This document shows, piece after piece, positions 3,103 through 25,943 of a DNA stretch of 64,000 nt. A program made the translations under genes and the position numbers. Numbering within the stretch: position 1 is the stretch's first letter; each line of letters starts with the position of its first letter. Below the pieces are notes generated by a model that saw only the letters and a list, made by a program, of their open reading frames with translations, was not told the origin of the DNA and did not search any database. Origin of the DNA: Escherichia coli (GTDB taxonomy: Bacteria; Pseudomonadota; Gammaproteobacteria; Enterobacterales; Enterobacteriaceae); NCBI RefSeq assembly GCF_044324875.1, contig NZ_CP172185.1; one strand, written 5' to 3'.

Positions 3103-3622
3103 TCTGTTTACCTCTTTCTCAGGGAGTTTAGTCTCCAGGATTCCCGGGGCGGTTCATTGTGTTTAAAGATGGCTCCAACGGACATAAATCGCTGTTTATG
3201 GGTTATGCGACCCCGAAAGCATTTTATGAAGCCCTGAAAGAGGCAGGTGGTACACCGGGCGAAAACATGACGATGGATAATAAAGAAACGACTCATGTCA
3301 CAGGCAGCAAACTGGATATTTCGGTCAACTGGCAAGGGGCGGCAAAAGCGTATTCCTTCGATGAAGTGATTGTTGACAGTAATGGCAAGAAACTGGACAT
3401 GCGCTTTGGCGGTAATTTAACGGCAGCAGAAGAGAAGAAAACGGGCTGCCTGGTGTGTCTGGATAGCTGCCCGGTCGGCATCGTCAGCAATGCAACATAC
3501 ACTTATGGTGCGGTTGAAAAACGAGGTGAAGTTAAATTCAAAGGCAATGCCTCGGTTCTCCCGGCGGATAACACGCTGGCAACGGTTACCTTTAAAATCA
3601 CCGAATAAAGCCAGGATAAAGA

Positions 3623-4330
3623 ATGATGAAGATGCAATCGAGAAAAATCTGGTACTACCGTATAACCCTCATCATCCTGTTGTTCGCTATGCTGCTGGCA
3701 TGGGCGCTGCTTCCCGGCGTCCATGAGTTTATTAATCGCAGCGTTGCGGCGTTTGCCGCCGTGGACCAACAGGGTATAGAACGCTTTATTCAGTCTTACG
3801 GCGCACTGGCGGCAGTTGTCTCGTTCTTGTTGATGATTTTGCAGGCCATTGCTGCACCGCTACCTGCGTTTCTGATCACCTTTGCAAATGCGTCGCTGTT
3901 TGGCGCGTTCTGGGGCGGCTTGCTGTCGTGGACCAGTTCGATGGCCGGCGCGGCGCTGTGCTTTTTTATCGCCAGAGTGATGGGCCGCGAAGTGGTGGAA
4001 AAGTTAACGGGTAAAACGGTACTCAATAGTATGGACGGCTTTTTTACCCGCTATGGTAAACACACCATTCTGGTATGCCGATTATTGCCTTTTGTGCCTT
4101 TTGATCCCGTAAGCTATGCTGCCGGTTTGACTTCAATACGTTTTCGCTCGTTTTTTATCGCCACCGGGCTTGGTCAGTTACCAGCGACTATTGTTTATTC
4201 CTGGGCGGGCAGCATGTTAACAGGCGGTACTTTCTGGTTTGTCACCGGACTGTTTATTCTGTTTGCCCTGACCGTGGTGATTTTTATGGCGAAGAAAATA
4301 TGGCTTGAGCGCCAGAAGAGGAATGCCTGA
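3623..4330 (+). CDS. ydjZ: TVP38/TMEM64-family inner membrane protein YdjZ
   Basis: 235 aa ORF; N-terminus MMKMQSRKIWYYRITL as recalled for YdjZ; synteny. Confidence 0.85.
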   Translation: MMKMQSRKIWYYRITLIILLFAMLLAWALLPGVHEFINRSVAAFAAVDQQGIERFIQSYGALAAVVSFLLMILQAIAAPLPAFLITFANASLFGAFWGGLLSWTSSMAGAALCFFIARVMGREVVEKLTGKTVLNSMDGFFTRYGKHTILVCRLLPFVPFDPVSYAAGLTSIRFRSFFIATGLGQLPATIVYSWAGSMLTGGTFWFVTGLFILFALTVVIFMAKKIWLERQKRNA

Positions 4331-4878
4331 TGGGTTTACCGCCGCTTAGCAAAATTCCTTTCATTTTACGTCCGCAGGCGTGGCTGCATCGTCGCCATTA
4401 CGGCGAGGTGCTAAGCCCGATTCGCTGGTGGGGGCGGATCCCGTTTATCTTTTATCTGGTGTCGATGTTTGTCGGCTGGCTGGAGCGCAAACGCTCACCG
4501 CTGGATCCAGTAGTGCGATCGCTTGTCAGCGCGCGCATTGCGCAAATGTGTCTGTGTGAGTTTTGCGTGGATATCACCAGTATGAAAGTCGCCGAGCGCA
4601 CTGGCAGCACCGATAAACTGCTGGCAGTGGCTGACTGGCGGCAAAGCCCGCTCTTTAGCGATGAAGAACGGCTGGCGCTGGAGTACGCCGAAGCCGCAAG
4701 CGTAACGCCGCCAACGGTCGATGATGCCCTGCGTACCCGACTGGCTGCGCATTTTGACGCCCAGGCGCTCACCGAACTGACGGCATTGATCGGACTGCAA
4801 AACCTGTCAGCCCGTTTTAATTCTGCCATGGACATTCCCGCTCAGGGGCTGTGCCGTATTCCTGAAAAACGTTCTTAA
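4330..4878 (+). CDS. ynjA: AhpD-like/carboxymuconolactone-decarboxylase-family protein YnjA
   Basis: 182 aa ORF, start overlaps ydjZ stop; synteny with K-12 gene order. Confidence 0.85.
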   Translation: MGLPPLSKIPFILRPQAWLHRRHYGEVLSPIRWWGRIPFIFYLVSMFVGWLERKRSPLDPVVRSLVSARIAQMCLCEFCVDITSMKVAERTGSTDKLLAVADWRQSPLFSDEERLALEYAEAASVTPPTVDDALRTRLAAHFDAQALTELTALIGLQNLSARFNSAMDIPAQGLCRIPEKRS

Positions 4879-5065
4879 GGAGGGTACTACCTTCACTTCT
4901 ACCTCTGCCTCCCAAACTCCGTAAAACTCATGCACAATCACCATATTACAGTCAACCCGAACATTATGAGCTCCACTGAATTCTACTGTTCACCCCCTAA
5001 ATCAAGCATAAAATGGGGGCATATTTGGGGGCCCATTGTGTTCAGTCAGTTTCAGGAGCCCCCAT

Positions 5066-6253
5066 ATGGCACTTACAGCCAGACAAGTCGAAACAGCCAA
5101 ACCTAAAGACAAAGATTATAAACTCTCTGATGAACGTGGTTTATATCTGCTGGTAAAAACCACGGGAGCACGCTACTGGCGCTTTAAGTACAGGATAGCA
5201 GGAAAGGAGAAAAAACTGTCCTTCGGTGTCTATCCTGACGTCTCCCTTGCAGAAGCCAGAACCAAACGCGACGATGCAAGGAAAATTATCTCCGAGGGCG
5301 GTGATCCCGGTGAAAAGAAACGAAGGGAAAAACTCTCACAGAAAATCTCTGTCACCAACACCTTCCATGCTCTCGCAATCGAATGGCATCATCATAAATC
5401 TTTATCATGGTCTGACAGTTACGCCAGAAGCGTACTGGAAGCTCTGGATAAAGACGTTTTCCCGTATCTGAGCAACCGGAGCGTTACTGATATCCTTCCA
5501 CTGGAAATGCTGGAAATACTACGTCGAATTGAAAAACGAGGCTCTCTGGAAAAACTACGCAAGGTCCGGCAATACTGCAATCAGATTTTCCGTTATGCCA
5601 TAGCCACAGGACGAGCCACTGTCAATCCAGCCTCAGAACTGAGCAGCACGCTGGCGGCACCAAAAACCGCACATTTTCCCCATCTGAGAGCGGATGAACT
5701 TCCTGTTTTTCTCCGGAAGCTCGCTGACTATCACGGCAGTCCTGTCACTCGTATGGCTACAAACCTGCTGATTCTGACCGGGCTCAGAACGATTGAATTG
5801 CGACTGGCCGAATGGTCAGAAATTGATTCTAGCAACGCACTCTGGCATATCCCTAGAGAGAGAATGAAAATGCGCCGGCCTCATATTGTTCCTCTGTCAC
5901 GCCAGGTCATTTCTGTTCTGCAGGAATTACATGGTTTTACCGGACAGTATCGCCTTATGCTACCCGGACGTTGCGATGTAAACAAACCTATGAGTGAAGG
6001 CTGCATCAATATGGTGCTCAAACGTATCGGTTACGATGGCAGGGCAACCGGTCATGGTTTTCGTCACACCATGAGTACCATTCTGCACGAACAGGGCTTT
6101 AATTCTGCCTGGATTGAAATGCAGTTAGCTCATGTGGATAAAAACTCCATCAGGGGTACCTATAATCATGCACATTATCTCGATGGTCGCCGTAAAATGA
6201 TGCAGTGGTACGCTGATTACATTGATTCTCTTATGGGAAAAACGCACAAATGA
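5066..6253 (+). CDS. Tyrosine recombinase, P4-type island integrase
   Basis: ORF 5036..6253; likely start MALTARQVETAKPKDKDYKL at 5066 with AGGAG 8 nt upstream; P4-integrase N-terminal signature and C-terminal catalytic region (HGFRHT...Y). Confidence 0.85.
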   Translation: MALTARQVETAKPKDKDYKLSDERGLYLLVKTTGARYWRFKYRIAGKEKKLSFGVYPDVSLAEARTKRDDARKIISEGGDPGEKKRREKLSQKISVTNTFHALAIEWHHHKSLSWSDSYARSVLEALDKDVFPYLSNRSVTDILPLEMLEILRRIEKRGSLEKLRKVRQYCNQIFRYAIATGRATVNPASELSSTLAAPKTAHFPHLRADELPVFLRKLADYHGSPVTRMATNLLILTGLRTIELRLAEWSEIDSSNALWHIPRERMKMRRPHIVPLSRQVISVLQELHGFTGQYRLMLPGRCDVNKPMSEGCINMVLKRIGYDGRATGHGFRHTMSTILHEQGFNSAWIEMQLAHVDKNSIRGTYNHAHYLDGRRKMMQWYADYIDSLMGKTHK

Positions 6254-6310: not shown

Positions 6311-6639
6311 ATTTTTGCCTTCAGGCGTGTCCACAGGAAAATGCAAACTGCGGTATATACCCGTGTGATAAACAACAGTTTAAGGCTGAAATACTCTCCT
6401 GCCTCGCTGGCATTCGTTTCAAACATAGCGAAAAGAACACTCTGCGAGAACTCATGACTATAAATAAAATAATAACAGAGTGCTGTCAGTGACGTAGTCC
6501 AGAGAATAATACCGACAACCGCTGCAATAATTTTTATCCGTTCTGGAAAAAGAAACACGGGTATCCGCCACAGGGAGCTGAATAACAGTGAATCTCGTAT
6601 TCCATTTATTCCACCGTATCCGGTGCTGAAGATAATCAC
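6301..6639 (-). pseudogene. N-terminal ~110 aa fragment of an OpgE/EptA-like membrane phosphoethanolamine transferase
   Basis: ORF MIIFSTGY...FETNASEAGEYFSLKLLF...RLKAKIKK resembles the N-terminal TM region of sulfatase-family pEtN transferases; the catalytic domain is missing. Confidence 0.4.
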
Positions 6640-6803
6640 CTGCAGCAGGGTGGAAAAGATAAAGTATCGCCCCCGTGCGCTCCGGCTGAAAGCAGGTCTG
6701 CTGTTTCCGGCATTTAAATGTATTGACCATCTCCCGGTAAAATGTAATAAATCCCCCGTTACCGGAAAACCGATGAACAGAATTCGGACAGAAAATGAGT
6801 TCC

Positions 6804-7746
6804 TCAGTTACCTGTTGCGTTTCCCCCGGTCTGATGAGCCAGAGACACAATGGTCTGTACCGTTCTGTTGATATTAAACCGGTATTCGATATCTTCTCTG
6901 GCGCTGGCAACCATCATCCTGAAGCGTTCCGGGCGGGACAAAAAATCCCGAAGCGCACTGGTCCATGCAGTCATATCTCCCACAGGTAAAAGTGTTCCTG
7001 TCACATTTTTCTGAATGGCATCCGGGATCCCGCCAGTCTCACTGGCAATAACGGGAACACCGGAGGCTGACGCTTCAGCCAGGACCATGCCAAATGCCTC
7101 ATTTTTCAGAAGGCATGATAGCACACTGGCAACCCGGTATATCGGTAACGCCGGGAAAACAGCACCAGCCATGAAAACATCACCACTCATTCCCAGTGAT
7201 TCAATCTGCAGGCGAAGGCGTTCTTCGTATTCCTCACGACCAGCGCCCACCACGAGCCATCGAAATACTTTCCCTTCCATCTTCAGTTGGTGCAACACCC
7301 GGAGCATAAATTCATGCCCTTTCTCGGGACGCAACATACCCACCTGGACAATCAGCGGGATATTGCCCGCTGATTCTGTCCATCCCTGAATATGCGGAGG
7401 TAACTGTTGCCTGACTTCTCTGTGTAATACAGAAACGATGCCAGCATATCAGACGGCTCAGGCCTGCAATGTTACTGTCATGACCACTGTGGCAGATTAC
7501 CAGATCAGGTCTGAATTACCGGATTACCTGCCGCAGTCTGATGATGGAAGGAAGGTGAAGACTGTTCCTGAAAGGAATAAAAGTAACATCATGTCCGATT
7601 GTTCTGGCTTCATGAGCTATTTTACTTTTTTCCCTGCAGGCGAGTAAAACAGAATGCCCCTGTTTCTGGAGCGCTGTCATCTGTGCCAGAGCCTGTAACT
7701 CCTGGCCACCAATATCTGGTGAAGACTCAGTGAATAAAATCTTCAT
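6804..7746 (-). pseudogene. Family-1 (GT4-type) glycosyltransferase, frameshifted
   Basis: N-terminal ORF 7516..7746 and C-terminal ORF 6804..7343 (motif EAFGMVLAEASASGVPVIASETGGIPD) are in different frames with stops between them. Confidence 0.6.
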
Positions 7747-8401
7747 TATTAATTCTCTGGTAATCTTGGCCCCTTATGAAGAGCCAGTAATGAAGAGAAA
7801 AATGGCGTGATATAATAAAAAGGCACCGTTTCAGCCAACCGCAATATTCCCGTTCTTTTGTACTAATACGTCCTATAAGTAATGAACCTTTTACAGGGCA
7901 GTTCATTCTTCTTTCCGTTGTATATAAATAAGATAAACCAAGTTCTCTGGTGAGATTAATATAATCTCTGCTATAATATCCTGCAGGCCAGCATAGATGG
8001 GGACTACAGTATCCCAGTTTTTCCTTCAGACATTGTTTGCCTGTCATAATAGCTTCTTCCATGAGTCGGCACTGCTCAGTACGTGGTACAGACAGTCTGT
8101 CCCAGCGTTTATGTGAATGGGTATGTAAATGGAATTCAACAAGACCGGAATCACGCATTTCCCGGACTTCAGACCAGCGAAGCATCACTTCATCGGAACG
8201 GTTATCTGCAATCAACTGCTCACAGTCGCGATGCGAATATTCCCGTTTCTGTCTGTAACGCACCTTCCCGTCACCAATCAACCCTGTAATGAGAAAAATA
8301 TGCGTATGAAGATTGTATTCCTTCAGTACCGGCCATGCCCGGAACCAGTTATCAAGATATCCGTCATCGAATGTAATCATGAAGCTCTTTCTTGGAAGCA
8401 T
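7727..8401 (-). CDS. Polysaccharide deacetylase (NodB-homology domain)
   Basis: 224 aa ORF with the TFDDGY motif near the N-terminus; 3' end overlaps the glycosyltransferase start (operon-like). Confidence 0.6.
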   Translation of the reverse strand: MLPRKSFMITFDDGYLDNWFRAWPVLKEYNLHTHIFLITGLIGDGKVRYRQKREYSHRDCEQLIADNRSDEVMLRWSEVREMRDSGLVEFHLHTHSHKRWDRLSVPRTEQCRLMEEAIMTGKQCLKEKLGYCSPHLCWPAGYYSRDYINLTRELGLSYLYTTERRMNCPVKGSLLIGRISTKEREYCGWLKRCLFIISRHFSLHYWLFIRGQDYQRINNEDFIH

Positions 8402-9417
8402 TCCCCCCTGATAAAAATATTAAAGTTCAGCGGATGTTACTGTCCGCCAGTTATTTTTTGCGAGCCACTCTATCTGTTCACAAAATATTTCAGGTGAAAG
8501 TGTCACAAGCCCCGGACAGCGACTGACATGATGGTACATCAGTACGGGAAGATGTCTTGCATTCAACATAAAGCATTATCACCAGTTAGTTATACAGTAA
8601 ATATACCCCGAGTAAAAACAGGGCGGTTTAGGATATGTCTGGCTCCGGGTATTCTACTATGTAATCAGGGAATAATGGACAATGAGAATACAACAGACAC
8701 TTTTAATATTTCCGACTGTTTATCAAAATAATTTTATCCTTTGTGAATATATTGTTTTTATCAGATGATTTACTTATTTTCCAGGAAAATAAAATCCTTC
8801 GATTTCAGGACACTCAGAGGAATATACCTGCTTCCGTCAAAAATCATAAAAACCGTGTCCCGATTAGTTTTAGCAGCAGGATCAAATGCAGTAATATAAT
8901 GATCTTATACCAGTAAGCCACTGGGAAATGCCCTCAAAATGTCGTGCACTGATTTTTCGGTTGAGAGCCTCATAATACCTAATATTACTGGCCGTAATAA
9001 TCCGGAGGCACAGCATAGCTTTCTTGTACAGAGGCATCATGATGAACAGGATTAATACCGTCACAGATGCACAAGTTTTACCCGTGATAAAGAATCCCGT
9101 TTTGTCCGCACTTGCCTGCGCCAGCGTTGAAAACGTGCCGGTTATTGTAGTTAAGTTATTGCCGCTAACTTTTTCACAACCCACCTATCCGGATATTTCC
9201 TTATTCTTCATATATTACATCTCATAAATTTAAATGTGAGTTTCTCATGGGTAAAATAAATTATACGAATCGCATCAATAGGAAAGACAGACGGTGCTGC
9301 CGATATAAAACGGGAAGTGACGGGATAAGCAGTTATGTGAATATTGTTTCAAAAAATGATATTTTGTGTTGTTAAAGTATAACTTTGCAATAAGCTATCC
9401 ATGATGGGATTCTGTAA

Positions 9418-11689: not shown

Positions 11690-11989
11690 AACATATTCGA
11701 TGACGGACAGGCGACAATGTGGTTATCTGTGCTGGCGTTTGGCAGACAGGCCGAAGCACTGGCCAGACACCAGAAAGGCGAACTGGTAAGCGTGGCAGGT
11801 AACATGCAGGTCAGCCAGTGGACAGGGCAGAACGGGAAAACGCGGCAGGGACGGCAGGTTATCGCAGACAGCGTAATCAGTACTCAAACGGTGCGGCCAG
11901 GAGGAAGCAGACGCGAAACCACAGGTACACAGGGTAATCAGCCACCAACGGGAGGCGACGCCACTTACGGAGATGATATACCCTTATGA
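11690..11989 (+). pseudogene. Single-stranded DNA-binding protein, C-terminal fragment only
   Basis: ...MWLSVLAFGRQAEALARHQKGELVSVAGNMQVSQWTGQNGKTRQG...DDIPL parallels the SSB C-terminal half including the acidic DDIPF-like tail; no N-terminal OB-fold part. Confidence 0.5.
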
Positions 11990-12006
11990 ATTAAGCGGGG
12001 CGCAAC

Positions 12007-12327
12007 ATGAACAACAGCACACTGAAGAGCCGGACAATAAGCGACGCGACAGCGGAAGAACTCGAGAGCAGGGGACTGTGGCGACGTGCTGCCAGAAGGT
12101 GGCAGGATGTGATGATTACTCTTGAGAAAGACAGTCACAGACAGCTTGCAGTAATGAGAGCAAGGGAATGTATCAGGAAGGCAAAACGCCCGATACCTGA
12201 AAGCCGTATTGATATTCATACAGTCAGAAAGGCCGCAGACAGGACAATACAAAAAATGGGGCTACCGTCGCTTACTGATGAAATATGGCGCGATTACCCT
12301 GATAGCGTTAACGATGACGGTTATTAA
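12007..12327 (+). CDS. PerC-family transcriptional activator
   Basis: 106 aa; motif AEELESRGLWRRAARRWQDVM typical of PerC/Pch proteins; later KMGLP motif. Confidence 0.55.
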   Translation: MNNSTLKSRTISDATAEELESRGLWRRAARRWQDVMITLEKDSHRQLAVMRARECIRKAKRPIPESRIDIHTVRKAADRTIQKMGLPSLTDEIWRDYPDSVNDDGY

Positions 12328-12610
12328 CTGGCGGGGGAAACACGATACCAGCGGGCGTGACTCGGGAGAATATATACCGCTGGTGGAACATTACCAGCCC
12401 TGATGGCTGGTGGCGTGCGTTACGACCTGAAAGACCATCCATGCGGGAAGGTGACACAGGAGCACCTGGCGAACGCGGGGAAGCGACTGGATGAGATTAA
12501 GAAAAAACAGCAGGAGCGCAGAAAAAGTAACCGTCTCATTAAAACGTCTTTCGCCTCCCTTTCCTGTTTCCTATGCTAATGTCCATTTTCGCAGTAAAAG
12601 GACATTTACG

Positions 12611-12859
12611 ATGAATGCACGAAAGGCGGTACTGGCAGATAATCCGGAATTGATCCTGCGTTTGCTACAACTGAAATTTGACGAGACACTGTCGTACCCG
12701 CGCATTTCTGCACAGACCGGTGTCAGCAAAACCGCTATTTTTTCTCTGGTGAGGCGATTTCATCAGGTATTCACTGACGGGCATCTTTCTGGTGAATATT
12801 CCTGCGTGCAACTGACCGGGCTCTTTTCCCGGGGCGATAATATTCAGCCCCGACAGTGA
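12611..12859 (+). pseudogene. IS21-family IstA N-terminal HTH fragment
   Basis: MNARKAVLADNPELILRLLQLKFDETLSYPRISAQTGVSKTAIFSLVRRF resembles the N-terminus of the IstA at 16595..18130. Confidence 0.35.
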
Positions 12860-13090
12860 CTCAGCCTGTAAAAACAGAGAAAACCCGTCGGAACCGATTT
12901 TCACCAGAGTAAAAATGGAGACTTGTTCAGCAAACTCTTTTACCCGGAGCCTGTGTGGCCCAGATTGCACGAGAGTCTGGCATCAATGATAATGTTATTT
13001 TCAAATGGCTCAGACTCTGGCAAAACGAAGGGCGTGTTTCGCGGCGTCTTCCGGTAACAACCACTTCTGACGCAGGCGTTGAATTATTAC
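12860..13090 (+). pseudogene. Transposase HTH-subunit fragment (IS66/IS3-type)
   Basis: Frame reads ...FSPE*KWRLVQQTLLPGACVAQIARESGINDNVIFKWLR...; stop-interrupted. Confidence 0.3.
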
Positions 13091-13660
13091 CTATGGAGAT
13101 AACGCCGGATGAGCAGAAAGATCCGATGATTCCCCTACCGCCAGCTTTTCGCCTGCGCCGGTATACGTTTCTTTATCTTTGCCCTGCATCACCCACAGGC
13201 TGGCTCCGCCGATAATGGCGTTTTGTGGTGCATCTTTCGCGTCAGCGTCGTAAGGCATCATGCCTACGCCGTAGTTGAATTTGGCGTACTCGCGAATGTT
13301 GGCAAGAGAACCGGAAGAGGCGGTGGTCATCGCGCAATCACCTCTATAGAACTTCTCGGTGGATTCATCCTTACGCCCGACGTAGATGAAGTCGCCCTTC
13401 TTGTTCATCTCCTCGAGCATGACGATGTGTTTCACCTGCTCCGGCTTGTTGAACTCCAGCACCGCGTCCGTGGCGTCAAAACCGTTGTTTTTGCTGGCAA
13501 ACGGCAGACCGTTCCTGGCGCTAAAGTTTTCCAGTTGTATCCACCTCTTTGCCCATTTCCCCTTCCATAGAGTTCCAAAACGGAATGGTCGTCACTGCCT
13601 GTGCATTGCCCATTAACGCCAGTCCGAGCACCAGTGATGAAGCTGTATAATGTAACGGTT
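13091..13660 (-). pseudogene. ugpB: ugpB (sn-glycerol-3-phosphate ABC transporter binding protein) remnant with internal deletion and 3' truncation
   Basis: Signal peptide [30 protein letters not shown]... at the 5' end and ...[16 protein letters not shown]...[11 protein letters not shown]...[18 protein letters not shown] in ORF 13091..13462; about 160 codons missing between them; frames differ. Confidence 0.8.
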
Positions 13661-14419
13661 TCATCGTTTATCTCTCTTGCTTGTTGTACCTGATGTGCAA
13701 ATTCACTCGTTTTATGCTCGCGGGATTACATATCATGCCCGAATTGCAGAAAAATAACTTTTTATTACATGTGTAAGACAGTAAAACCTCAGAAAGATGA
13801 CAGTGTGGTGCCGGCGCGGGTGAGGAAAAATGGAAGATGGGGAATGTATAAGCGGGAAAATAGGAGGGCCTGTGGATTGTAGATAATGTGCTCATCGTTT
13901 TCATGCCGGATGAGACATAAACACTTTTATCTGAGCATTTCTATGTATTCGGACAGTTGTTCTTGGCATCCAATGGTGCAGGTTCTGTAGTGTGTGGTGG
14001 TAGCAATAGCCTCAGCTTCATTACAATATTTATTATCTCAAACATTCAAATGTCCTTGGCCCACTTTGATAGTCACTTTGTCGTGGTTATTATGTCTTTC
14101 CTTTTCCTAAAGCCCCATTATCTGTGCTGCAGCTTTCCCTCCATCAACGAACCAACAACCAGCAATGCCTGTCCCCCATAACAGCCCGGAAAATGGCACA
14201 TTCTCAGATGATTTATCCCGCGAGCTATCCCGCCTACAGCTAATCGACCTGTTTAATACATCTTGACAGTCTGCTGGCAAGGTTACCCTTCCCAATATTG
14301 TCCGTTTTTAACATATCTAATACGAGCCCCCATCAAATATGCTTCGTGTTCACTGTAAGTGACTAAAAGTGCTGTCTGCCCTGCCTCATGCAAAATATCA
14401 CGAACTTCACGGCTCAGTC

Positions 14420-14921
14420 CTACCCTTGTTTTTTATCCAAGCTGGAAAATGGTTCATCTAGCAACAGGATATCTGGATTTGGAACCAGTGACCTTGCAAG
14501 GGCAATACGTTGCTGCTGACCTCCTGAAAGTTCATGAGGATAGCTGTCTGAATAGTGGAATAAATCCACCATTTTCAACAGTTCTGTAACTCTGGTTCGC
14601 TGTACATCTCTCGGCAGTCTTCTCAGACCAAAGCCACGTTTTGTGAAACTGTAAGGTGGGGAAAGAGCGCATATTCCTGAAAGACTATACCGACATGACA
14701 TTTCTCCGGCGGAAAATGCATATCTGCGCTGGCCACACAATGCTGTGATACAAAAATTTCCCCTTGTTCAGGCGCTCAAAACCAGCTACAGCACGTAGTA
14801 CTGTTGTTTTTCCACAACCTGATGTACCAAGCAGACATGCCAGTTCACCTTTACAGACTGACATACCCCCCGCCCCGCAATACAGGATATGGGCTATTGG
14901 GATAAACAACATGGACATCAT
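14420..14921 (-). pseudogene. ABC transporter ATP-binding protein, frameshifted and truncated
   Basis: Walker A GTSGCGKTTVL in ORF 14685..14921; signature [13 protein letters not shown] and Walker B LLLDEP in ORF 14420..14740; different frames. Confidence 0.6.
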
Positions 14922-14951
14922 TAATACATAAAGCTGTTTCTTCAGACATAA

Positions 14952-15552
14952 TCAATCCTCTGATTTCAGTCTTTCAGCTGGAACAAACAAAATAACCGGA
15001 AATGTCCCTGCAAGAACAATCATTAAAGCAGAGATGGCCCCTTCTTCAAAAGTTCCACGGGCTGCTTCAGCATAAAGAAGTGTTACTGGCAGTTCTTTCA
15101 TCGCATCAGTGAAAACCAGCAGGGCACTGCTCACCAGAGCAACACAGGAAAGTGAACCCGAACAAAAGTTCCTGTACCATTTTCTCCCAGCAGACGTGAG
15201 GCTTGTTCCAGTGACGCTGGTATACGTCCCAGCCGGACATCAAGTGCGCCGATGGCTATTGCCTGAAATCGCATCGTACAGCAAATCACCAACAGGACAC
15301 CGACAGACATTAAAGGTAACCCCCTGTAATCCAGTAGTTCCGCCAGCCAGCGGTCATTTAGGGAGTCAGAAAACCAATCGCCAGAATCGTGCCCGGAAAG
15401 GCATAACCCAGCGACGCCCCTCTCATCACACCGCGCCTGAACAGTGGCATAGCGTTGAGGAATTCCGGGCATTCCAGACTACGAGCAGACTGACAAAAAT
15501 TACGACAAAGCGTTGAAGGAAGCCAGCGCGCGGACTGACAGGACTTTACCAT
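14952..15552 (-). pseudogene. ABC transporter permease remnant
   Basis: Hydrophobic ORFs 15358..15552, 15131..15472 and 14952..15134 in three frames, upstream of the ATPase remnant. Confidence 0.45.
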
Positions 15553-15822
15553 AAAAACACAGGCTAACCGCGCCTGCGTTTTTAATGACGGATGAAACAG
15601 AATCAGGTGCCGATTATGCCGCCGTCGGCTTTTACGATAACGACAGTTGAGGAGCGCGGACGACCAGCCTTATCGCCGTCAGGCCAGCTTGATACTGCCG
15701 TCGGATGCTGCGGATCGCTAAGCTGCGTATTCCGCTCTATTCGATCACGGATTGGCATCGAAGTCCGATCAGCGATTCGCATCCATTCGATCAACCGGGA
15801 ACTTAACTTTTTCTACCGCTTT

Positions 15823-16578
15823 TTAACGCGTTTTTTCGCTGCTTTCCACTACCGGGGGATTTTTCCTCAGTGACTCTCCCTGAAGGACCACTCGGTGTGA
15901 GTTATGTACCAGTCTGTCCAGGATGGCATCTGCTGTTGTTGGGTTCTCCATCAGACCATGCCATTTATCTACCGGGAACTGGCTTACCACTATCGTGCTG
16001 CTTTGTCCGTAACGATCCTCTATGAGCTCCAGAAGGTCATTACACTGGGCGTTACTTAACTGTTCCAGCCCCAGATCGTCCAGGATTAGAACCTGTATTT
16101 TTTGCAACTGTTTCAGATATTTCAGCCAGCTGCCATCAACACGTCCCTGAGCCAGTTGTTCCAGTAATCGCCCGGTTCTACAGTACCGGACGCTGTGTTT
16201 CTGTCGACATGCCTGTTCGCCCAGCGCATTGGCTATCCAGCTCTTGCCACATCCTGTCGGACCGGTTATCAGCAGGTTTTTCCTGTGGGTTATGTAGTGG
16301 CCGTTCAGCAGTTCTCTCATCTGTTCAGCCCGCAGACCTCTTGAGGCCGGATAGCGCAGCCCTTCCGGTGTTGCCTGGTATTTCAGGCCGGCATTTTTTC
16401 TCAACCGTGCCACACGGCTGTTTTCCCTGCTCAGAAGCTCGTCATCAACCAGCAGCGTCAGCCTTTCCTCGAACGACAGTTCGTCGTAGGTCTGAGGCGT
16501 TTCCCGCTGCCGTATCAGGCTCCCGGCCATCGCCGGGAGTTTCAGTTGGGTCAGTTTGTTTAACAGGTTATCACTCAT
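15823..16578 (-). CDS. IstB-like ATPase of the IS21-family element
   Basis: Walker A GPTGCGKS; likely start MSDNLLNKL at 16578 with AAGGAA RBS. Confidence 0.8.
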   Translation of the reverse strand: MSDNLLNKLTQLKLPAMAGSLIRQRETPQTYDELSFEERLTLLVDDELLSRENSRVARLRKNAGLKYQATPEGLRYPASRGLRAEQMRELLNGHYITHRKNLLITGPTGCGKSWIANALGEQACRQKHSVRYCRTGRLLEQLAQGRVDGSWLKYLKQLQKIQVLILDDLGLEQLSNAQCNDLLELIEDRYGQSSTIVVSQFPVDKWHGLMENPTTADAILDRLVHNSHRVVLQGESLRKNPPVVESSEKTR

Positions 16579-16594
16579 ACTGTTGTTCCTTCTG

Positions 16595-18130
16595 TCAGTG
16601 GTAGTAGCCCGGACCACGCAGGTTTTCATGCTCTGAAGCATATGCCGGATGTTGTTCGCCCTGGCGGGATAATGGAAGCTCCAGGTTCTCCCGATGGTGA
16701 CGCAGCAGATTGTCGATAAAGCGTCTGTCAGGGGCGTTATAGTGCAGGGCAACGTAACAGGCCTTTTCCAGCCGTTCCGGGCCGTATTTTTTCTGAAGTG
16801 CCAGCAGCCCCAGAACTGCACGATAAGCCAGTTCCGGATGGGGTTTTGCCTTCAGCATGGATTCAACCACCCGGCCTGTGGACGGGCCCGTACGTTTTCC
16901 CTGCTCGATCAGGCGTTCCGGTGTCCATGTCCCGTGCTGCCGGTGGCGCTCTGGCATGTGAAGCGGATTGGTTGTGTGTTTATATTCATGTGTGCTGCGC
17001 GGATGTTGCGCCACACACTGCCCCTTGTGCCAGAGCTGTACCACCGACTGCCCCGCCTTCAGTGACAGACGCTGACCGACCAGTTCGTGTGGAACGGAGT
17101 ACCAGTGACGGGCATATTCAACGTGGTAGTCAGGGCCAACCTTCACAGCTTTGTATTCCGTGTATTCATAAGGTGCCAGAGGCAGCGGAGAGAGTGCTGG
17201 CGCATCCAGTATGCGGAAGCGTTCTGCACGGGTTTGATTGCCGTACCCCTTCATTGGCCGGTTATTCATGTCTGTCAGTAACTCCCTAAGGCGCGCATTC
17301 AGCGCCCTGAGCGTGTGGAAGGTTTCATTACGGATGCGGGCAAGAAGCCATCGTTCAACGATGAGGACGCCGTTTTCTGCTTTTGGTTTATCTTTAGGTT
17401 TGCGTGGTCGGGCCGGGATGATAACCGTGCCATAGTGCTCAGCCAGTGCCTGATAACTGTCGTTGATGACAGGCTCATATCGATCGGCCTTTTTCACTGC
17501 GCTTCTGAGGTTATCGGGGATGAGCAGCTTCGGTACGCCGCCCAGGAAGGTCAGGCAACGGCTGTGGGCATTTAACCATGACATCATGTCCTGACCTTCG
17601 CACGCTTCAACGTAGGTATAGTTGGACGCCCCCATTACGGCCACGAAGATTGCCACGCGGCGTATCTCACCGGTGTCCGGATTAATAACAGGAACCGTAG
17701 GACCACAGAAGTCGATAAAAAGCTTTTCGCCGGCACGATGCTCCTGGCGCATGGAGAGACGTCGCGTTTTTTTCCACTCCCGGTAGCAACGGCAGAAGTG
17801 CGAGTATCCCATCGCTTTGTTACCCGCCTGTGCCTTGTATTCCATCCACAACAGTTGCCGCGTCACACCTGGTTTTCTCATTTCCGTATCGAAGTACAAC
17901 ATGTCAGGCATTACAAGCTCTGATGCAAAGGTGTCTTTGGGCGGAAAAATGAGTTTCTCCAGCGTGTCATGGGATATATCAGCAGGTAATGGCCATGACA
18001 GAGAAGAGGCTTTGAAGCGGGCAAGAACCTCAAAAACGGTTGAGGCGCTGATGTGTAACGTCAGTCCGATACAACGGTTAGTCAGCTTCTTGTCGAACTT
18101 GAGCTGAAGGATCTTAAAACAGGTTTCCAT
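16595..18130 (-). CDS. IstA-like DDE transposase of the IS21-family element
   Basis: 548 aa ORF; likely start METCFKILQ at 18130 with AGGAG RBS; N-terminal HTH and rve core. Confidence 0.8.
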   Translation of the reverse strand: METCFKILQLKFDKKLTNRCIGLTLHISASTVFEVLARFKASSLSWPLPADISHDTLEKLIFPPKDTFASELVMPDMLYFDTEMRKPGVTRQLLWMEYKAQAGNKAMGYSHFCRCYREWKKTRRLSMRQEHRAGEKLFIDFCGPTVPVINPDTGEIRRVAIFVAVMGASNYTYVEACEGQDMMSWLNAHSRCLTFLGGVPKLLIPDNLRSAVKKADRYEPVINDSYQALAEHYGTVIIPARPRKPKDKPKAENGVLIVERWLLARIRNETFHTLRALNARLRELLTDMNNRPMKGYGNQTRAERFRILDAPALSPLPLAPYEYTEYKAVKVGPDYHVEYARHWYSVPHELVGQRLSLKAGQSVVQLWHKGQCVAQHPRSTHEYKHTTNPLHMPERHRQHGTWTPERLIEQGKRTGPSTGRVVESMLKAKPHPELAYRAVLGLLALQKKYGPERLEKACYVALHYNAPDRRFIDNLLRHHRENLELPLSRQGEQHPAYASEHENLRGPGYYH

Positions 18131-18241
18131 AGTGCTCCTGGATTTTCTCTTTCTGGACATTGACGTCTCCACTGGTTTAAACACGGCAATGGAGACTGTG
18201 GTGAAAAGAGTTAATTCCCGGAGTGACTGGCAGGATGCCAA

Positions 18242-18365
18242 TCAATGATCGGAAGCATGCCAAATCGTGATCGATTGTGATGCCAAACTGTGATCGGAGA
18301 TGGATGCCAAATCATGATCGATTCGAATGCCAAACTGCGATCGATTCAGATGCCATTTTGCACTA
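18242..18365. repeat. Five tandem ~23-bp direct repeats (ATGCCAAAYYRTGATCGRWKNNN), terminal repeats of the IS21-family element
   Basis: Seen directly; inverted versions lie at the other IS end. Confidence 0.6.
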
Positions 18366-20227
18366 AGCCCTTCGCTTGGCTCGCCAGGGTGCTGGATGTT
18401 AATAAACAGCGTCCGGTTATCCGGAGTGAACGCGATGCCGGTGATTTCGCAGCCGCGCGGGCCGGTCAGGAAGCGGCGGAACTCATTGGTACCGGGAATC
18501 GTCGCCACCATCTGGTTGTTGCCCATGCCTTTGTAATCTTTAATATTTATGGTTGATGACGACACGTCGGTCTGGATCCATAGCACGCCGCGGTGATCGA
18601 AGCTCAGGCCATCGGCGCTGCCGAATTCCGCACCCTTCATGCTGCCTTTGGTTTCCGGTTTGTCTGTATCGGTGCGACCGCCCATCACAAGAATATCCCA
18701 GGCAAACTGCAGCGCGGTCGGGTCACCGTTATGCTCCAGCCAGTGAATGATGTGGCCGTAAACGTTTTTGGCGCGCGGGTTGGCCGCATCCACTGGCGCT
18801 TTTCCTTCCTTACCGCGATCGCTGTTGTTGGTGAGCGTGCAGTAAACGCTGCCGGCGTGATATGGATCGACCGCAATCCACTCCGGGCGGTCCATTTTAG
18901 TGGCCCCCACGGCGTCTGCCGCCAGACGGGTTTTAATCAACAGGTCGCCCTGGTTTTCAAACCCTTTACTGGCGTCGAGCCCATTTTGTCCGAACACCAG
19001 CGGTAGCCACTCGCCTTTGCCGTCGTCGTTAAATTTCGCCACGTACAGAGTGCCTTTTTCCAGCAGGTGCATGTTGGCTTTGCGATCCTGCGGGTTGAAT
19101 TTTCCTTCCGAGACAAATTTATATATGTATTCGAATTTCTGGTCATCGCCCATATAGACCACAACGCGGTTATCCGGGGCAATTGTCACCGCTGCGCCTT
19201 CGTGTTTGATGCGACCAAGCGCGGTGTGCTTGCGCGGCACTGAATGCGGATCGTATGGATCGATTTCCACCACCCAGCCGAAGCGGTTCGGCTCGTTCGG
19301 CGTGGCGTCGACGCTGAACCTTTTATCCACTTCGTTCCAGCGGTAAGAGTCGTCGCTCCCGCTGATACCGTAACGTTTTTCCAGCGGGTTCATCTCTGCT
19401 TTTTTTACGAAAATATCGGACCAGTTCTCTTCACACGTCAGATAGGTGCCCCACGGCGTAAATCCGTTGGCACAGTTCTGCATGGTGCCGAGAATGATTT
19501 CGCCTTTCGGATCGTCAACTGTTTGCATCAGTGGGTTATGCAGCGCCGGACCGGTGATTTTCATCGGCGTGTTAACGGTGATGCGGCGTGCGAACGATGA
19601 CGGGCGCACCACTTCCCAGCCCAGGGGCACTTTTTTTACTTCAATGACCGACACGCCCATCGCGTTCTGGCCTTTAAGAGCTTTATCGGCGCTCCAGTTG
19701 GCATCGCCATCTTTAAACAGTAGACCGTTATCGATGTATTCATGGTTTATGGCAAGCAGGCCGTGATCGGAGCTGTTCCCGCCCTGCGGCAGGCTAAACC
19801 ACGCCATGCCGTCGTGGTGCATCCCGGCCTGCGCCGCCTGTTCTTCCGTGGTGTTGCTACCGTCGGTTTTAAAAACCGGCAGATTTCCGGCAATCCCGGT
19901 GGCGTCGCCCCATTTGTAGAAGGGCTTCGCGATGTATCCTTCCGGCACGATAACGGTATCTTCCGTGGAAACCGGCAGGCTGGTGAAACCGAGCGTCGTC
20001 GCTTTGCCGAGGTTACCGCTTGCTTTGGAGACCACTTTCGCCAGCGCGTTTTCCTGTTTCAGCAGAAATGGGAACGCTGCCGCGGCACCGGCGACCGTGC
20101 CTGCCTGTAACAGACGGCGGCGTGACAAATAGACTTCCGCCACCTGCGAAAACGCGCGGTTATCGCTCGGGTTACTGATTTCTTCACTATGCTCACGTTT
20201 GAATAAAGTTTTTAACGGTCTGCCCAT
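18242..20227 (-). pseudogene. PhoX-type (DUF839) Tat-signal phosphatase, C-terminus replaced by the IS21-family end
   Basis: Twin-arginine motif LSRRRLLQAG; beta-propeller phosphatase-like body; the last ~40 codons of the ORF are encoded by the IS terminal repeats. Confidence 0.55.
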
Positions 20228-20869: not shown

Positions 20870-21606
<737 letters not shown>

Positions 21607-21612
21607 CTAGCT

Positions 21613-21649
<37 letters not shown>

Positions 21650-21988
21650 TAATTACACTGTGGGTTGACGCCGGAAGAATCAGAGAACAGATACCGTTCT
21701 TACTGTAAAACGTGGCTAATATTAATTGAGCACTGCAGTGTTCAGAGCACAAAGAAGAAAAAAGATGTGTGCGAATGCCTGTAATGTGTTAAAAGAATGT
21801 TCCGCGTTTCCGGTACGCTTTTCGTAACTAACAATGCAGGGTGACGTAACGCTGGTTGTGCCGGAAACGCGTCCCTCCCCCTATCTTTCCTGTTTGGATT
21901 TGCCCCTATATTTCTGGATTATCCGACAAAACCGGCGTGAAGTATTACTCTCGTCGCCCAGCACCATAAGGATAACGCCCATAAAATC

Positions 21989-22354
21989 ATGAAACTTTTC
22001 TTCCAGATTGGATACAATCAGGCCGTATCCCGTATTACAGGCTTATCACGTGTGACAGTCAGTCTCTGGGTGTGTTCAGGAACATTCCCTGAAATGTCAA
22101 CCCGGCCTCCAGAGCGAGGACTTCTGGCCCCATGGAGGGAGTGGTTAAAAGAGCAACGAGAAAGTGGTAACTTCGGCGCGTGGCTGCAAGGATGGCAGCT
22201 GATGCTGCGGCTATATGTGAGGCAATCAGCAGTCGCTGGAATAATGGGGGTTGTCGAAAGTCATGTAAATCGACTAAAAATGCTGAAAGGCCAGATGTAT
22301 GGTCGAGCCGGATTTGAACTACTCAGGCAGAGGGTCATGAGTCCACTGGCATGA
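21989..22354 (+). CDS. Hypothetical protein with possible HTH (AlpA/Cro-like) N-terminus
   Basis: 121 aa ORF; weak resemblance only. Confidence 0.25.
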   Translation: MKLFFQIGYNQAVSRITGLSRVTVSLWVCSGTFPEMSTRPPERGLLAPWREWLKEQRESGNFGAWLQGWQLMLRLYVRQSAVAGIMGVVESHVNRLKMLKGQMYGRAGFELLRQRVMSPLA

Positions 22355-22562
22355 AAATCTCCATCCAGGTTGCGTAAGAGCCACTTTTCATCCGTCGTCG
22401 ATATCTGGGATAGCCATAGTGAAATAAAAAGCTGTCTGAATTAAATTATTTTGCACATATATTTTAATCCTGCACTGAATTAAGAATGGGTAATCAGTGA
22501 CCGCTTGGACGGTCACTTTTAAGAGAAGGCATTAACAGAGAATGGTAAACAGGCTCAATATA

Positions 22563-23014
22563 TTATGTTGTTGGCACTACAGATGAATGATGGGATGATA
22601 TTTTCCAATCCTTTCCATCCCACTCATAAGCGAAACTATAGCGTGCTGAAACTTGTTTTTTATCTTCAAAAGTAAACGTGTAATTCCCTGTATCAAGAGC
22701 CATATTGCATCCAATGCGAATAGTTCTGAAGTTTATTTCTCCAACAGGTTTTTTTTTCAAAAAATGCTCAAAATAGTCAACTCTTTCTGCATCTGTAATC
22801 CTAATTTTTTTTGATACTGTGGGCAGTAAGATCGCATCACTTAAATAGTTATCAGCAACCTTCTTGGCATCACCTGTTTTTAATGATTCATTCCAGCGAT
22901 CGAATAACCTTTCAATGTCTTTACTATCTACCCGAATACACTTAACATTATCTACGTCACTTGCCCACGACGCTCCAGAAAACAGACACAGAATTAAAAT
23001 ATTTATTTTTTCAT
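22563..23014 (-). pseudogene. NTF2-like (DUF4440/SnoaL-like) secreted protein, frame broken in an A6 tract directly after the ATG
   Basis: AGGAGG-4nt-ATG at 23014; ATG AAA AAA TAA as written; one extra A gives MKKINILILCLFSGASWA signal peptide plus a ~130 aa NTF2-like domain ending ...WKISSHHSS. Confidence 0.5.
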
Positions 23015-23245
23015 AACTCCTCCTGATCAGCCTGAAACTTTTTTAAAGTTTAATCATATTAATACAGTGCAACTATTTGATAGTAAAAACGATGTTCTCT
23101 ATTTTGTTAATAGATACTTCCTATTGTGTATATATTATGAGATTATTAAGAATAATACTCTCTGGGTCGTAGAGACAGGGTATAAGTCACAGGCTGGTGT
23201 GGTTCGGATGTTCTTGCCCCCTCAATATCAGACTGCTATTGTATC

Positions 23246-23611
23246 TTAAGTTAACGTTATCCGCTGACGTCGATATTCCCGTGGTGAGAGATAACCTAAC
23301 GCACTATGCGGATGGTTTTCATTGTAATGCTCGAACGCCTCTGCAAGGTTATGCAATGCCGTTATTACATTCGGTTTCGGTATGAACGCAATGTAGTCTT
23401 CCTTCATCGTTTTCACTAACCTTTCTGCCATTCTATTGCTCTGAGGGCTACTGACTGCCGTCGTGCAGGGCTCCAGATTCAACTCTCTGGCGAATTGCCG
23501 TGTTTCATGAGCCGTATAAGCCGAACCGTTATCCGTCCGCCACTGGATTGCTCGTTCCGGTCCTTTATCGCCAAAGCGTTTTTCTATCGCTCCTAACATC
23601 ACATCCTGCAC
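23246..23611 (-). pseudogene. IS3-family (IS2-like) OrfB C-terminal fragment
   Basis: ...[18 protein letters not shown]...[14 protein letters not shown] motif. Confidence 0.55.
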
Positions 23612-24375
23612 TGTCGGCTTTATCGTAACCTCCCGTACTGGTCACGGGCAGACTGTTCATCATGTTAAACCCAGCCGCTGTCAGATCATGCACCGGCCGG
23701 ATGGCGGGCTGACCTGCCCCGCCGCGCTGCTGCCCGCCAATCCATTTCTTACCTTCCTTCCCGGTGGCCTGACGTCCGGCCTCGTCCCCTTTCACCGCAT
23801 CACCGTCACCGCTGTTCACCACCTTCTTGTACTCTTCCAGCATCGCTGGCCTGCGTCCATTTGCTGCGATCAGAAAAGTCCATCATCCGTTTTGCCATGT
23901 TCTGGCAGTTCAGTTACGCCTTGTCGAAAGCCACATTCGCCTGCAGCACACCGTTGGTGATCATGTCGTACAGGCCGGGGTTGGCACGCTGTATCACCAT
24001 CGCCGGCAGACTGGCAGCGGCGCCGGTCGCCCCCTGAATCACATCCCCCATCAGATTTTTAAAGCCGTCGGTCAATCCGTTAAGATGATTACCCACCGTG
24101 GTCTTCAGGTCAAAGTTGCCGCACATCAGATCGCTGCTCCAGCCCAGGTCCATACCCAGCTTCTGCATGTTGCTGCGCGTGGCCAACTGTGAGATCACCG
24201 AGCCGCCACCCAGCGTATAGAACAGTTTGTCGGATACGGCGCCATCCACGGATTTCCCGTAACCGAACGTGCTGTCATTCAGTTTCGGCAGGGAAAGAAG
24301 ATCAGCCATCGCCGGAATACTGCAGTACAGCATCACACTCAGTGCCACCATACCTGTTTTCATCTTCATCATCAT
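23565..24375 (-). pseudogene. Conjugative-transfer (ICE-type T4SS) TraH-like protein, truncated/frameshifted
   Basis: Signal peptide plus conserved body in ORF 23914..24375; C-terminal part in another frame (ORF 23565..23843); family call from memory, weak. Confidence 0.35.
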
Positions 24376-24381
24376 GGTTCC

Positions 24382-24780
24382 TTAAAAATTCGTACTGCCA
24401 AGGAATCGCTGCCCGCGCTTTTCGAAGCAGCTGTAAGGCTGCCACAGTGCAAAGGCTGCATTACCGTTCTCCGCCGCCTGGTGTTCACCATCCGGGAAAA
24501 CGGCACAGGAACGCGACACTGACGGCGTCAGTCGCTGCCATTTGTGATTGCGGGTGCCGGTGTTTTCCTCCACCGCCTCCGGGGGCCAGTAGCCGTCACG
24601 TTTCACGCCCTTAACCTCCCTGTAGACATGCGACTCCCCCATCCGCGTGATAATGTCGGCCACCCGCTGAGCCCCCACCGCCGCGGCCCGGTCATCATCG
24701 CTCTGCATCACAAAACCACTCCGGTGATAAACGCTCCCCCACATGTTTTTATCGGCCTAGCTGCCAATCTCGCGTTTGCC
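24382..24780 (-). pseudogene. ICE-associated protein with in-frame amber codon near the 5' end
   Basis: ORF 24382..24744 extends upstream in frame across a TAG at about 24758. Confidence 0.3.
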
Positions 24781-24825
24781 GGGAACCTGTGCCTCTGGAT
24801 ACAGGGATTCAGGTAATCCCGTTCG

Positions 24826-25356
24826 CTAGACGATGCTGTCCAGGGTACTGAGGAAATAGGCCATGGCCGGTGTCACCGGTGAATCACAGCTGAATCCGGG
24901 TACCATCCCGCCGATAAGCTGTGTGGCCGGATGACCCAGCGCATCTGCGTATTTGAAACGAATTGCTGAACGGCGCTTCCCCTGTATTTTCATATCCGCC
25001 GGATTTCCCCCGCCGGCACTCAGCCCGGACAGGCCGTCAGTGATGGCATTCTCCGGGCCACCTGCGGTCCGGCTGACCAGCGACATCTCTTTCCAGGGAT
25101 TACCACCCGGTGCCGTATAGGTGGAAATAACCACTTCCGGGATGAAATGTGTCACCTTCACGGAAATTCTGACCGTACAGCCAGACGCGCTGCAGTAAAG
25201 CCAGTAACAAATCCCGCTGACACGCCAGCTGATATAGTCCGGTGCCGCAGTACTGGCGATAATGCTGGCGGTGTTCAGTGATACAGACGCCAGGGGCAGT
25301 GATGCCACACTCAGTAACAGCACGCCGGTACGCAGACTACATTTCAGGGACATCAT
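24826..25356 (-). CDS. Conjugative-transfer TraU-like protein
   Basis: 176 aa; signal peptide; Cys-rich motif GICYWLYCSASGC; weak family call. Confidence 0.35.
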   Translation of the reverse strand: MMSLKCSLRTGVLLLSVASLPLASVSLNTASIIASTAAPDYISWRVSGICYWLYCSASGCTVRISVKVTHFIPEVVISTYTAPGGNPWKEMSLVSRTAGGPENAITDGLSGLSAGGGNPADMKIQGKRRSAIRFKYADALGHPATQLIGGMVPGFSCDSPVTPAMAYFLSTLDSIV

Positions 25357-25748
25357 GGCTGCACTCCTCCCTCAGCACGGATTTTCCCGGCCATCACCAC
25401 ATCCATAGTGCCGTAAACCACCTCACTGTCATCAAACACCACGGCAGGGTATTTCTTCACGCCCAGCGACTAGGCATGTGCCACATCGCGGTAATGACCG
25501 GCCAGTTCCGCCTGCATCGTCTGCCATTCGGGAGACTTCATACGTACCCTGACCACCGATTCAGCCTCACCCGCATCAGCAGGCAACAGGCCCCAAAAGC
25601 GGCTCTGAAGCTGCTCAGGCGCATCCAGCAGAACCACCCTGACACCATCAGGAGGATTAACGGGAAGATGCTGAGAATCGGTATAAATTGTTGTGCCGGC
25701 AGACGCTGCCAGCGGCAGGAAAAACAGGGAACAGAAAATCCGGTACAT
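25330..25748 (-). pseudogene. ICE-associated periplasmic protein with in-frame amber codon
   Basis: ORF 25470..25748 continues in frame after a TAG (...RDVAHA*SLGVKKYPAVVFDD...). Confidence 0.4.
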
Positions 25749-25943
25749 CGTACACCTCAGTCAGATATTATCTGACTGACAGCGTGCGAAGAAAGCGCTC
25801 ATTTATCAGCAATAAATTAAAAACGGGATTAAAAAATTACGGTGGGATCCGGGGAAGTGTATCTGCCAAGCATAACAGACAGTCTGTGATTATACCCGGC
25901 CTTTCACAAAGCCGGGGAACTGATTCATACCAAGTGGTGATTT

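Follow-up and report, generated by a model that had tools for sequence, protein, structure and literature searches.

Decayed ugpB and ABC-transporter genes carried by a genomic island between ynjA and ynjB in Escherichia coli

Mosaic pathogenicity islands of the SHI-2/SHI-3 type and of the pheV type in Escherichia coli and Shigella carry genes for aerobactin (iuc/iut), sitABCD and iha. UgpB of E. coli (b3453) is the periplasmic binding protein for sn-glycerol-3-phosphate and glycerophosphodiesters of the UgpBAEC importer. YnjB, YnjC and YnjD (b1754–b1756 in K-12) are a binding protein, a fused permease of the 12-helix type and a short ATPase of about 220 residues, respectively. Another three-gene operon, with genes for a binding protein (345 aa), a fused permease (562 aa) and, in the last position, an ATPase (227–231 aa), is found intact in Citrobacter freundii, Buttiauxella agrestis and Rahnella. 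It is labelled "iron(III) transport system" or "FbpC 2" by different sources, which is a putative substrate assignment only.

The sequence studied here, called the window below, is a stretch of 64,000 nucleotides from E. coli (RefSeq assembly GCF_044324875.1, contig NZ_CP172185.1). An initial annotation placed a ugpB remnant beside decayed ABC-transporter genes at 13091–15552 and explained them as backbone genes dislocated within the host lineage. A deleted and truncated ugpB copy does adjoin frameshifted ABC ATPase and permease genes there, and all three matches are far beyond chance. The limits 13091 and 15552 are the ends of incidental open reading frames; the real features occupy 13148–13922, 14283–14949 and 14952–15509, all on the minus strand. 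It is also true that ugpB normally lies far from xthA (3.59 Mb versus 1.83 Mb in K-12). Most of the explanation did not hold. The relics at 13148–15509 are very probably old pseudogenes, inert cargo of a mosaic, integrase-bearing genomic island in the 9-bp spacer between ynjA and ynjB, and not pieces of the host's own backbone. As such they are an ordinary finding; RefSeq already labels them pseudogenes in dozens of genomes. The features of the region, in window coordinates, are the following.

12611–13147, plus strand: remnant of an IS66-family tnpA gene, frameshifted and 3'-truncated, tail to tail with the truncated ugpB (PGAP annotation in strains SCU-115, PK8275 and NRZ14408)
13148–13664, minus strand: ugpB remnant as a whole, lacking 461 bp internally and cut short at the 3' end; some 260 bp of DNA from upstream of ugpB are retained next to it
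13148–13543, minus strand: distal piece of ugpB (nt 583–977), 95.5% identical to K-12 (E 0), with a putative recombination patch of about 180 bp and allele-unique changes
13521–13664, minus strand: proximal piece of ugpB (start codon, signal peptide, approximately nt 1–121), RefSeq hypothetical protein WP_001470085.1
13665–13922, minus strand: upstream (promoter) DNA native to ugpB and transferred together with it; identity to the livF–ugpB intergenic region of K-12, 84.6%
13923–14282, no strand: 360-bp spacer separating the ugpB upstream DNA from the ATPase pseudogene, without K-12 homology
14283–14949, minus strand: ABC ATPase pseudogene (short form, FbpC/PotA/PhnT-like) with four frameshifts, near 14862, 14764, 14630 and 14427, and a substitution of the H-loop histidine by tyrosine
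14952–15509, minus strand: ABC permease pseudogene, the last third of a fused permease, with three frameshifts, near 15454, 15356 and 15132, and an in-frame loss of 13 residues

The lesions of the ABC genes were mapped by frameshift-aware protein-to-DNA alignment to intact Citrobacter and Buttiauxella proteins. Residues 1–218 of approximately 230 of the ATPase align to 14949–14295 (tblastn E 1e-58), the stop codon being at 14283–14285, and residues 359–554 of 562 of the permease align to 15509–14982 (tblastn E 1e-47). The first 358 permease codons and the binding-protein gene are deleted, and no remnant of the cognate binding-protein gene was found anywhere in the 64-kb window. The ATPase remnant matches the Pfam domain PF00005 (ABC_tran, E 1.3e-29), and its Walker A, signature and Walker B motifs, including ILLLDEP, can be read after frame correction. 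Its reading frame is interrupted by the four frameshifts, and the H-loop reads VTYSEHEA compared to VTHSEHEA in homologues. Pfam yielded no domain match for the permease remnant; its identification is based on the alignment, at 82% identity over the aligned residues, to intact permeases that contain PF00528. NCBIfam models assign the ATPase to the PotA/PhnT/FbpC group with no equivalog cut-off reached. The best matches in a search of 5.8 billion proteins were ATPases of 227–233 residues from Buttiauxella, Citrobacter, Rahnella and Salmonella diarizonae, with about 70% identity. Both remnants are 71–73% identical to proteins of Citrobacter freundii and Buttiauxella agrestis.

Two other assignments of the ABC genes were considered. 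The initial annotation had raised ynjCD as a candidate. In direct alignment the ATPase and YnjD share 34.9% identity across 172 residues; the permease matches YnjC with E 2.4 at best, and a tblastn search with YnjC gave no match. The remnants also lie on the strand opposite to ynjCD and 10 kb into the island, and intact ynjBCD follow the island in SCU-115. The remnants are not ynjCD. The second assignment, in which phoX and the ABC genes form an ancestral functional unit, was rejected as well, given that the neighbourhoods of the intact Buttiauxella and Citrobacter operons contain neither phoX nor ugpB. The adjacency of these genes in the window therefore looks like a result of mosaic island assembly.

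The ugpB remnant consists of two pieces brought together by a deletion. Nucleotides 1–126 of K-12 ugpB align to 13664–13539 (93.7% identity, E 5e-52). Approximately nucleotides 122–582 (461 bp) are gone; the junction at about 13543 reads AAAGAGG|TGGATA, with only the 2-bp microhomology TG, and the frame is shifted. The last 340 bp of the gene (nt 978–1317) are missing too, with homology ending at 13148. Instead of a full-length UgpB frame of about 438 residues, the native start opens a frame of only 47 codons (13521–13664), which reads across the deletion junction and encodes the signal peptide and a few further residues. The spliced fragment matches the NCBIfam UgpB equivalog NF008211 (E 1.1e-73, 248 bits); with two thirds of the UgpB protein missing, the score stays under the full-length cut-off of 411 bits. 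No ugpA–ugpE–ugpC genes adjoin the copy, either in the window or in E. coli EC6563. The Rfam search of 12500–16000 gave no match, and promoter-like sites are not above the shuffled expectation; for the 360-bp spacer in particular, K-12 homology, Rfam matches and an excess of promoter-like sites were all looked for, with a negative result.

The surroundings of these relics are those of a genomic island. Homology to the K-12 backbone (xthA–ydjX–ydjY–ydjZ–ynjA) ends at 4882, directly after ynjA, and homology to the SCU-115 backbone has the same limit. Past 4882 there is a tyrosine-recombinase gene, and the remainder of the window is foreign DNA. The relics are located some 8–10 kb into this DNA and about 8 kb from ynjA. 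The island, phoX and the IS elements that are extra in the window relative to SCU-115 are located as follows.

1849–3155: IS3-family element in ydjX, extra relative to SCU-115
4883–64000, no strand: genomic island in the ynjA–ynjB spacer, continuing past the window's right-hand limit; the backbone match breaks off at 4882
5066–6253, plus strand: gene for a tyrosine recombinase (integrase) at the left end of the island, RefSeq WP_001218736.1 in the identical SCU-115 locus (listed as an open reading frame at 5036–6253)
15603–15723, minus strand: displaced 3' end of phoX, approximately the last 39 codons and the stop codon, cut off by ISSso4; phoX is continuous in SCU-115 (15604–17583)
15724–18362, minus strand: ISSso4 (IS21 family) in the 3' end of phoX, 2639 extra bases relative to SCU-115, 100% identical to elements annotated as ISSso4
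18363–20227, minus strand: 5' part of phoX (1865 bp), fused to IS-derived codons; an exact look-up of the resulting fusion protein gave no record
34140–35446: second copy of the IS3-family element, extra relative to SCU-115
47985–48751: IS1 copy, extra relative to SCU-115
57268–58035: IS1 copy, extra relative to SCU-115

Within the window the cargo comprises iha, sodC, the start of sitABCD and many IS remnants. The same island in E. coli SCU-115, a commensal rectal isolate from a healthy student, is about 90 kb long and carries iha, sodC, sitABCD, iucABCD–iutA and dozens of IS fragments and pseudogenes; its aerobactin genes (iuc/iut) correspond to DNA beyond the end of the window. At its far end a CP4-type toxin–antitoxin and antirestriction module is followed directly by intact ynjB, ynjC and ynjD. 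The 7-bp direct repeat TAAGGAG is present at both ends of the island in SCU-115. In NRZ14408, as in SCU-115 and the window, the island with its integrase gene directly follows ynjA, whereas K-12 has just the 9-bp spacer between ynjA and ynjB there. A comparison of the window with SCU-115 gives 9 SNPs and no indels in 10.8 kb of the island (0.08%), versus 35 SNPs in about 880 bp of the adjacent backbone (4%); hence the history of the island is decoupled from that of its hosts. Thus the segment is present or absent at a fixed backbone site, has an integrase gene at one end and direct repeats at both, and diverges independently of the backbone. We searched the literature for an island at ynjA/ynjB or a phoX–ABC–ugpB module and found no paper describing either.

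Of 5,426 complete E. coli genomes, 51 (about 1%) contain the entire stretch 13091–15552 (2462 bp) with at least 99% identity, in every case on the chromosome. The carriers come from human, chicken, swine and wild-bird (kite) sources. Within this stretch the window and SCU-115 differ by two SNPs and no indels. As the lesions are common to SCU-115 and the other carriers, the frameshifts, the deletion and the truncation predate the host of the window. In PK8275 the same module has a different left flank, with type I restriction, RhuM and MobI genes; the module acts like one building block within a mosaic island.

These comparisons leave hardly any room for the frameshifts and deletions being sequencing or assembly errors in genes that are in fact intact, an outcome that the initial annotation had named as one that would overturn its reading. 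We found nothing in support of it. The same indels recur in the 51 independent complete assemblies, with no gap differences between them, and errors in base calling cannot produce a 461-bp deletion or the loss of at least 358 codons together with a whole gene.

The explanation proposed initially was that the host's own ugpB and ynjCD had been moved and broken by IS-mediated rearrangement in the course of reductive evolution of a host-restricted lineage. Several observations agree with it: the host is IS-rich, five IS insertions in the 64 kb being absent from SCU-115, the truncated end of ugpB abuts the IS66 fragment, and the relics are only about 8 kb from ynjA. Nevertheless, we consider this explanation extremely unlikely. 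The window-specific IS elements all lie outside 13091–15552, which is untouched by any of them, and these five insertions did not create the relics. Their types (ISSso4, IS1 and an IS3-family element) would suit an IS-rich, possibly Shigella-like host. Identical lesions are present in the 51 genomes, that of the commensal from a healthy person among them; commensal, poultry and swine E. coli share all of the lesions with zero indel differences, which contradicts reductive decay of a host-restricted lineage. Moreover, ynjBCD are intact beyond the island in SCU-115, the ABC remnants are only 35% identical to YnjD with no significant match to YnjC, and the ugpB allele is divergent from K-12 both in the gene (dS 0.21) and in its promoter region. 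Of the proposed IS-mediated scrambling, a single element stands: the 3' junction of ugpB (13147/13148) does abut the IS66 tnpA fragment, and this junction predates the host. The internal deletion of ugpB is associated with a 2-bp microhomology instead, and the lesions of the ABC genes are small indels.

The island copy of ugpB exists in three states. Four E. coli genomes have it at full length, again adjoining phoX and the decayed ABC genes; of these four, EC6563 was inspected, and its copy is an intact gene of 1317 bp. In EC17CM2 and HCM-27C-1 the gene has the 461-bp deletion and retains the 3' end. Both the deletion and the truncation are found in about 46 genomes and in the window. The ABC region aligns among all three types (intact, deleted, deleted and truncated) without gaps. 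As the ABC lesions are identical in all three, the decay of the ABC genes probably came first.

The intact allele of EC6563 differs from K-12 ugpB with dS 0.206, dN 0.015 and omega 0.07; 13 of 438 residues are changed. The region upstream of the island gene is only 76–85% identical to those of K-12, E. whittamii and the other sampled Escherichia loci, that is, to K-12 and four other loci in all. Neither value is that of a resident allele, and carriers such as SCU-115 have a second, native place matching ugpB. These values indicate that the island ugpB is a divergent foreign allele, a gene that was still functional while it diverged in a lineage far beyond the usual allelic range of E. coli. 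The donor was sought by a contig scan with the first 20 nucleotides of ugpB, by which only genomes containing that 20-mer were sampled; it returned four Escherichia loci and two irrelevant ones. None of the four Escherichia loci is closer than 92–97% in any coding segment or than 83% upstream. In EC6563 an IS110-family pseudogene lies 3' of ugpB, and the match to the ugp locus breaks off within a REP-like sequence about 57 bp past the stop codon. To judge from these alignments, a single gene and its promoter would have been captured, with intergenic repeats as the limits.

Differences between the truncated and the merely deleted alleles are distributed unevenly. The segment 13544–13930 of the window type is 100% identical to EC17CM2, and in 13299–13481 the two disagree at ten sites, each with the K-12-like base in the window type. 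Such clustering points to a recombination tract with a resident-type ugpB. The patch at 13299–13481 (about 180 bp) would then be the product of an exchange with a resident-type gene. The direction may also be the reverse, with the allele of EC6563 and EC17CM2 being the converted one. The window-type allele has another seven or eight changes of its own, most of them non-synonymous, as would be expected of a pseudogene under drift.

The following history would account for these data. The island may once have held three genes for an ABC importer, namely its binding protein, fused permease and short ATPase, akin to the operon of Citrobacter, Buttiauxella and Rahnella, and, separately, an orphan ugpB with its own upstream region from an Escherichia-like donor. 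At the first step a deletion would have removed the binding-protein gene and 358 permease codons, leaving the remainder 94 bp from the phoX stop codon; seven small frameshifting indels and the H-loop substitution would have followed, giving the stage common to every carrier. At the second step the 461-bp deletion at the 2-bp microhomology would have eliminated approximately nucleotides 122–582 of ugpB and shifted its frame. At the third step the 3' end of ugpB was probably lost at the junction with the IS66 tnpA fragment; a resident ugpB of the E. coli type would have exchanged the patch of about 180 bp with the island copy, in which drift would also have fixed several non-synonymous changes. 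The island then may have spread, or may have been inherited, in the already decayed state. Insertion of ISSso4 into the neighbouring phoX would have occurred later and in the present host only, as this element is absent at the phoX site from all island-bearing E. coli compared. The statements on intact ynjBCD and on the second ugpB-matching place refer to carriers such as SCU-115 only.

Given their lesions, the relics are presumably without function. An alternative is that the ugpB remnant has been kept for a function, for instance as a PhoB-bound upstream region driving a 47-aa secreted peptide induced by phosphate starvation, or as a PhoB decoy. The 258 bp upstream and the first 121 nucleotides are 100% conserved among carriers (13665–13922 is 100% identical to the island copies of both EC6563 and EC17CM2), the alignment shows partial preservation of the CTGTCAT-type motifs of the ugpB promoter of K-12, the 47-aa frame remains with an intact signal peptide, and phoX is nearby on the same strand. 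However, the whole island is 99.9% conserved and so the conservation of this segment is uninformative on selection; in addition, the remnant gathers non-synonymous changes and shows neither promoter enrichment nor a match to an RNA family. We regard retention for such a function as very unlikely.

A broader reading joins the original composition of the module with the exchange patch, and we put it forward as a rather unlikely but conceivable one. The module might originally have served phosphate scavenging, with phoX and an orphan ugpB under a Pho-type promoter of its own, joined in the EC6563-type variant by a phytase-like esterase. The intact extra UgpB in the four E. coli genomes might act as an accessory binding protein feeding the resident UgpAEC, and the dead copy of the window might still exchange sequence with the resident ugpB by ectopic gene conversion. 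If this were true, pseudogenes of an island could serve a core gene as a reservoir of allelic variation, or as a sink for it.

With the relics read as inert island cargo, neither a scrambled backbone nor reductive evolution of this host can be argued from them, and beyond correct annotation the finding is of small consequence. Synteny analyses and pseudogene counts that include such island-borne pseudogenes would over-estimate lineage-specific decay. The three-stage allele series and the putative 180-bp exchange illustrate on a small scale the decay of island cargo and its interplay with a core homologue.

Compared with the systems described above, the island as a whole is similar to the SHI-2/SHI-3-type and pheV-type islands in having an integrase gene at one end, iron-uptake and adhesin genes among its cargo, dense IS fragments and pseudogenes and, as seen in SCU-115, a CP4-type toxin–antitoxin and antirestriction module at the far end. 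It differs from them in its site, which is the ynjA–ynjB spacer and not a tRNA gene. The ugpB remnant is 94–95% identical to E. coli ugpB over nt 1–126 and 583–977, retains the ugpB upstream region and matches the NCBIfam UgpB model, and the intact EC6563 allele is identical at 425 of 438 residues. Unlike b3453, the island copy is an orphan without ugpAEC, located near phoX, with dS 0.21 and a promoter region about 80–85% identical, and the copy in the window has a frameshifting deletion of 461 bp and lacks the last 340 bp. The ABC remnants share with the Citrobacter freundii, Buttiauxella agrestis and Rahnella operon the order of permease and then ATPase and the same short form of the ATPase; in contrast to that operon, the window lacks the binding-protein gene and two thirds of the permease, and what is left has seven frameshifts and has lost the H-loop histidine. 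YnjB/YnjC/YnjD, which are the integration neighbour of the island, resemble the lost importer in general composition, whereas the remnant ATPase is 35% identical to its counterpart there, the permease has no significant similarity, and the orientation is opposite.

The island (approximately 90 kb) is integrated not at a tRNA gene but between ynjA and ynjB, in the 9 bp that separate the stop codon of the former from the start of the latter, and the 7-bp direct repeat TAAGGAG is present at both ends of the island. The right end was located in E. coli SCU-115. A literature search found no published account of the ynjA-ynjB spacer as an integration site. The island features are as follows.

Window 4876-4890: left island end.
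SCU-115 right-hand locus (L009), about 27432-27445: right island end.
Window 6319-8570 and 21000-25800: decayed cargo, including pseudogenes for phosphoethanolamine transferase, glycosyltransferase and polysaccharide deacetylase, together with ICE genes (TIGR03756/TIGR03757) that are interrupted by internal stops.
Window 15603-20227: interrupted phoX, encoding a PhoX-family phosphatase.
E. coli EC6563 locus (L010, NZ_CP095856.1), 11823-15977: island variant.

The cargo of the two decayed segments is degraded in all carriers inspected. Disruption of phoX is confined to the window; the gene is intact in every inspected E. coli carrier. The 2639-bp element ISSso4 (IS21 family) is inserted about 120 bp ahead of the phoX stop codon, so that codons derived from the IS take the place of the final ~39. 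Within the otherwise island-type ugpB pseudogene, ten K-12-like bases cluster at 13299-13481; this segment is likely a tract of ectopic gene conversion involving the resident ugpB and its island counterpart. In the EC6563 variant the orphan ugpB is intact and lies next to phoX; after it come an IS110-family pseudogene and a gene annotated as "esterase-like activity of phytase family protein". Such a gene set could represent former phosphate-scavenging cargo.

Identity of the xthA-ynjA backbone (window 1-4882) to K-12 and to SCU-115 reaches only about 97%, and it is 99.9% to a small number of E. coli strains (VCSW5, XJ6.1, JNEC-KY178). The backbone allele at this locus is therefore an uncommon one. 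Matches at 99% identity or above were found in 147 of 5,423 records. Besides ISSso4, four IS insertions in the window are absent from the otherwise 99.9%-identical SCU-115 locus.

Window 1849-3155: IS3-family element within ydjX.
Window 34140-35446: second copy of the same IS3-family element.
Window 47985-48751: IS1 copy.
Window 57268-58035: IS1 copy.

Five lineage-specific insertions in 64 kb, ISSso4 included, suggest that the host is IS-expanded, resembling Shigella in this respect.
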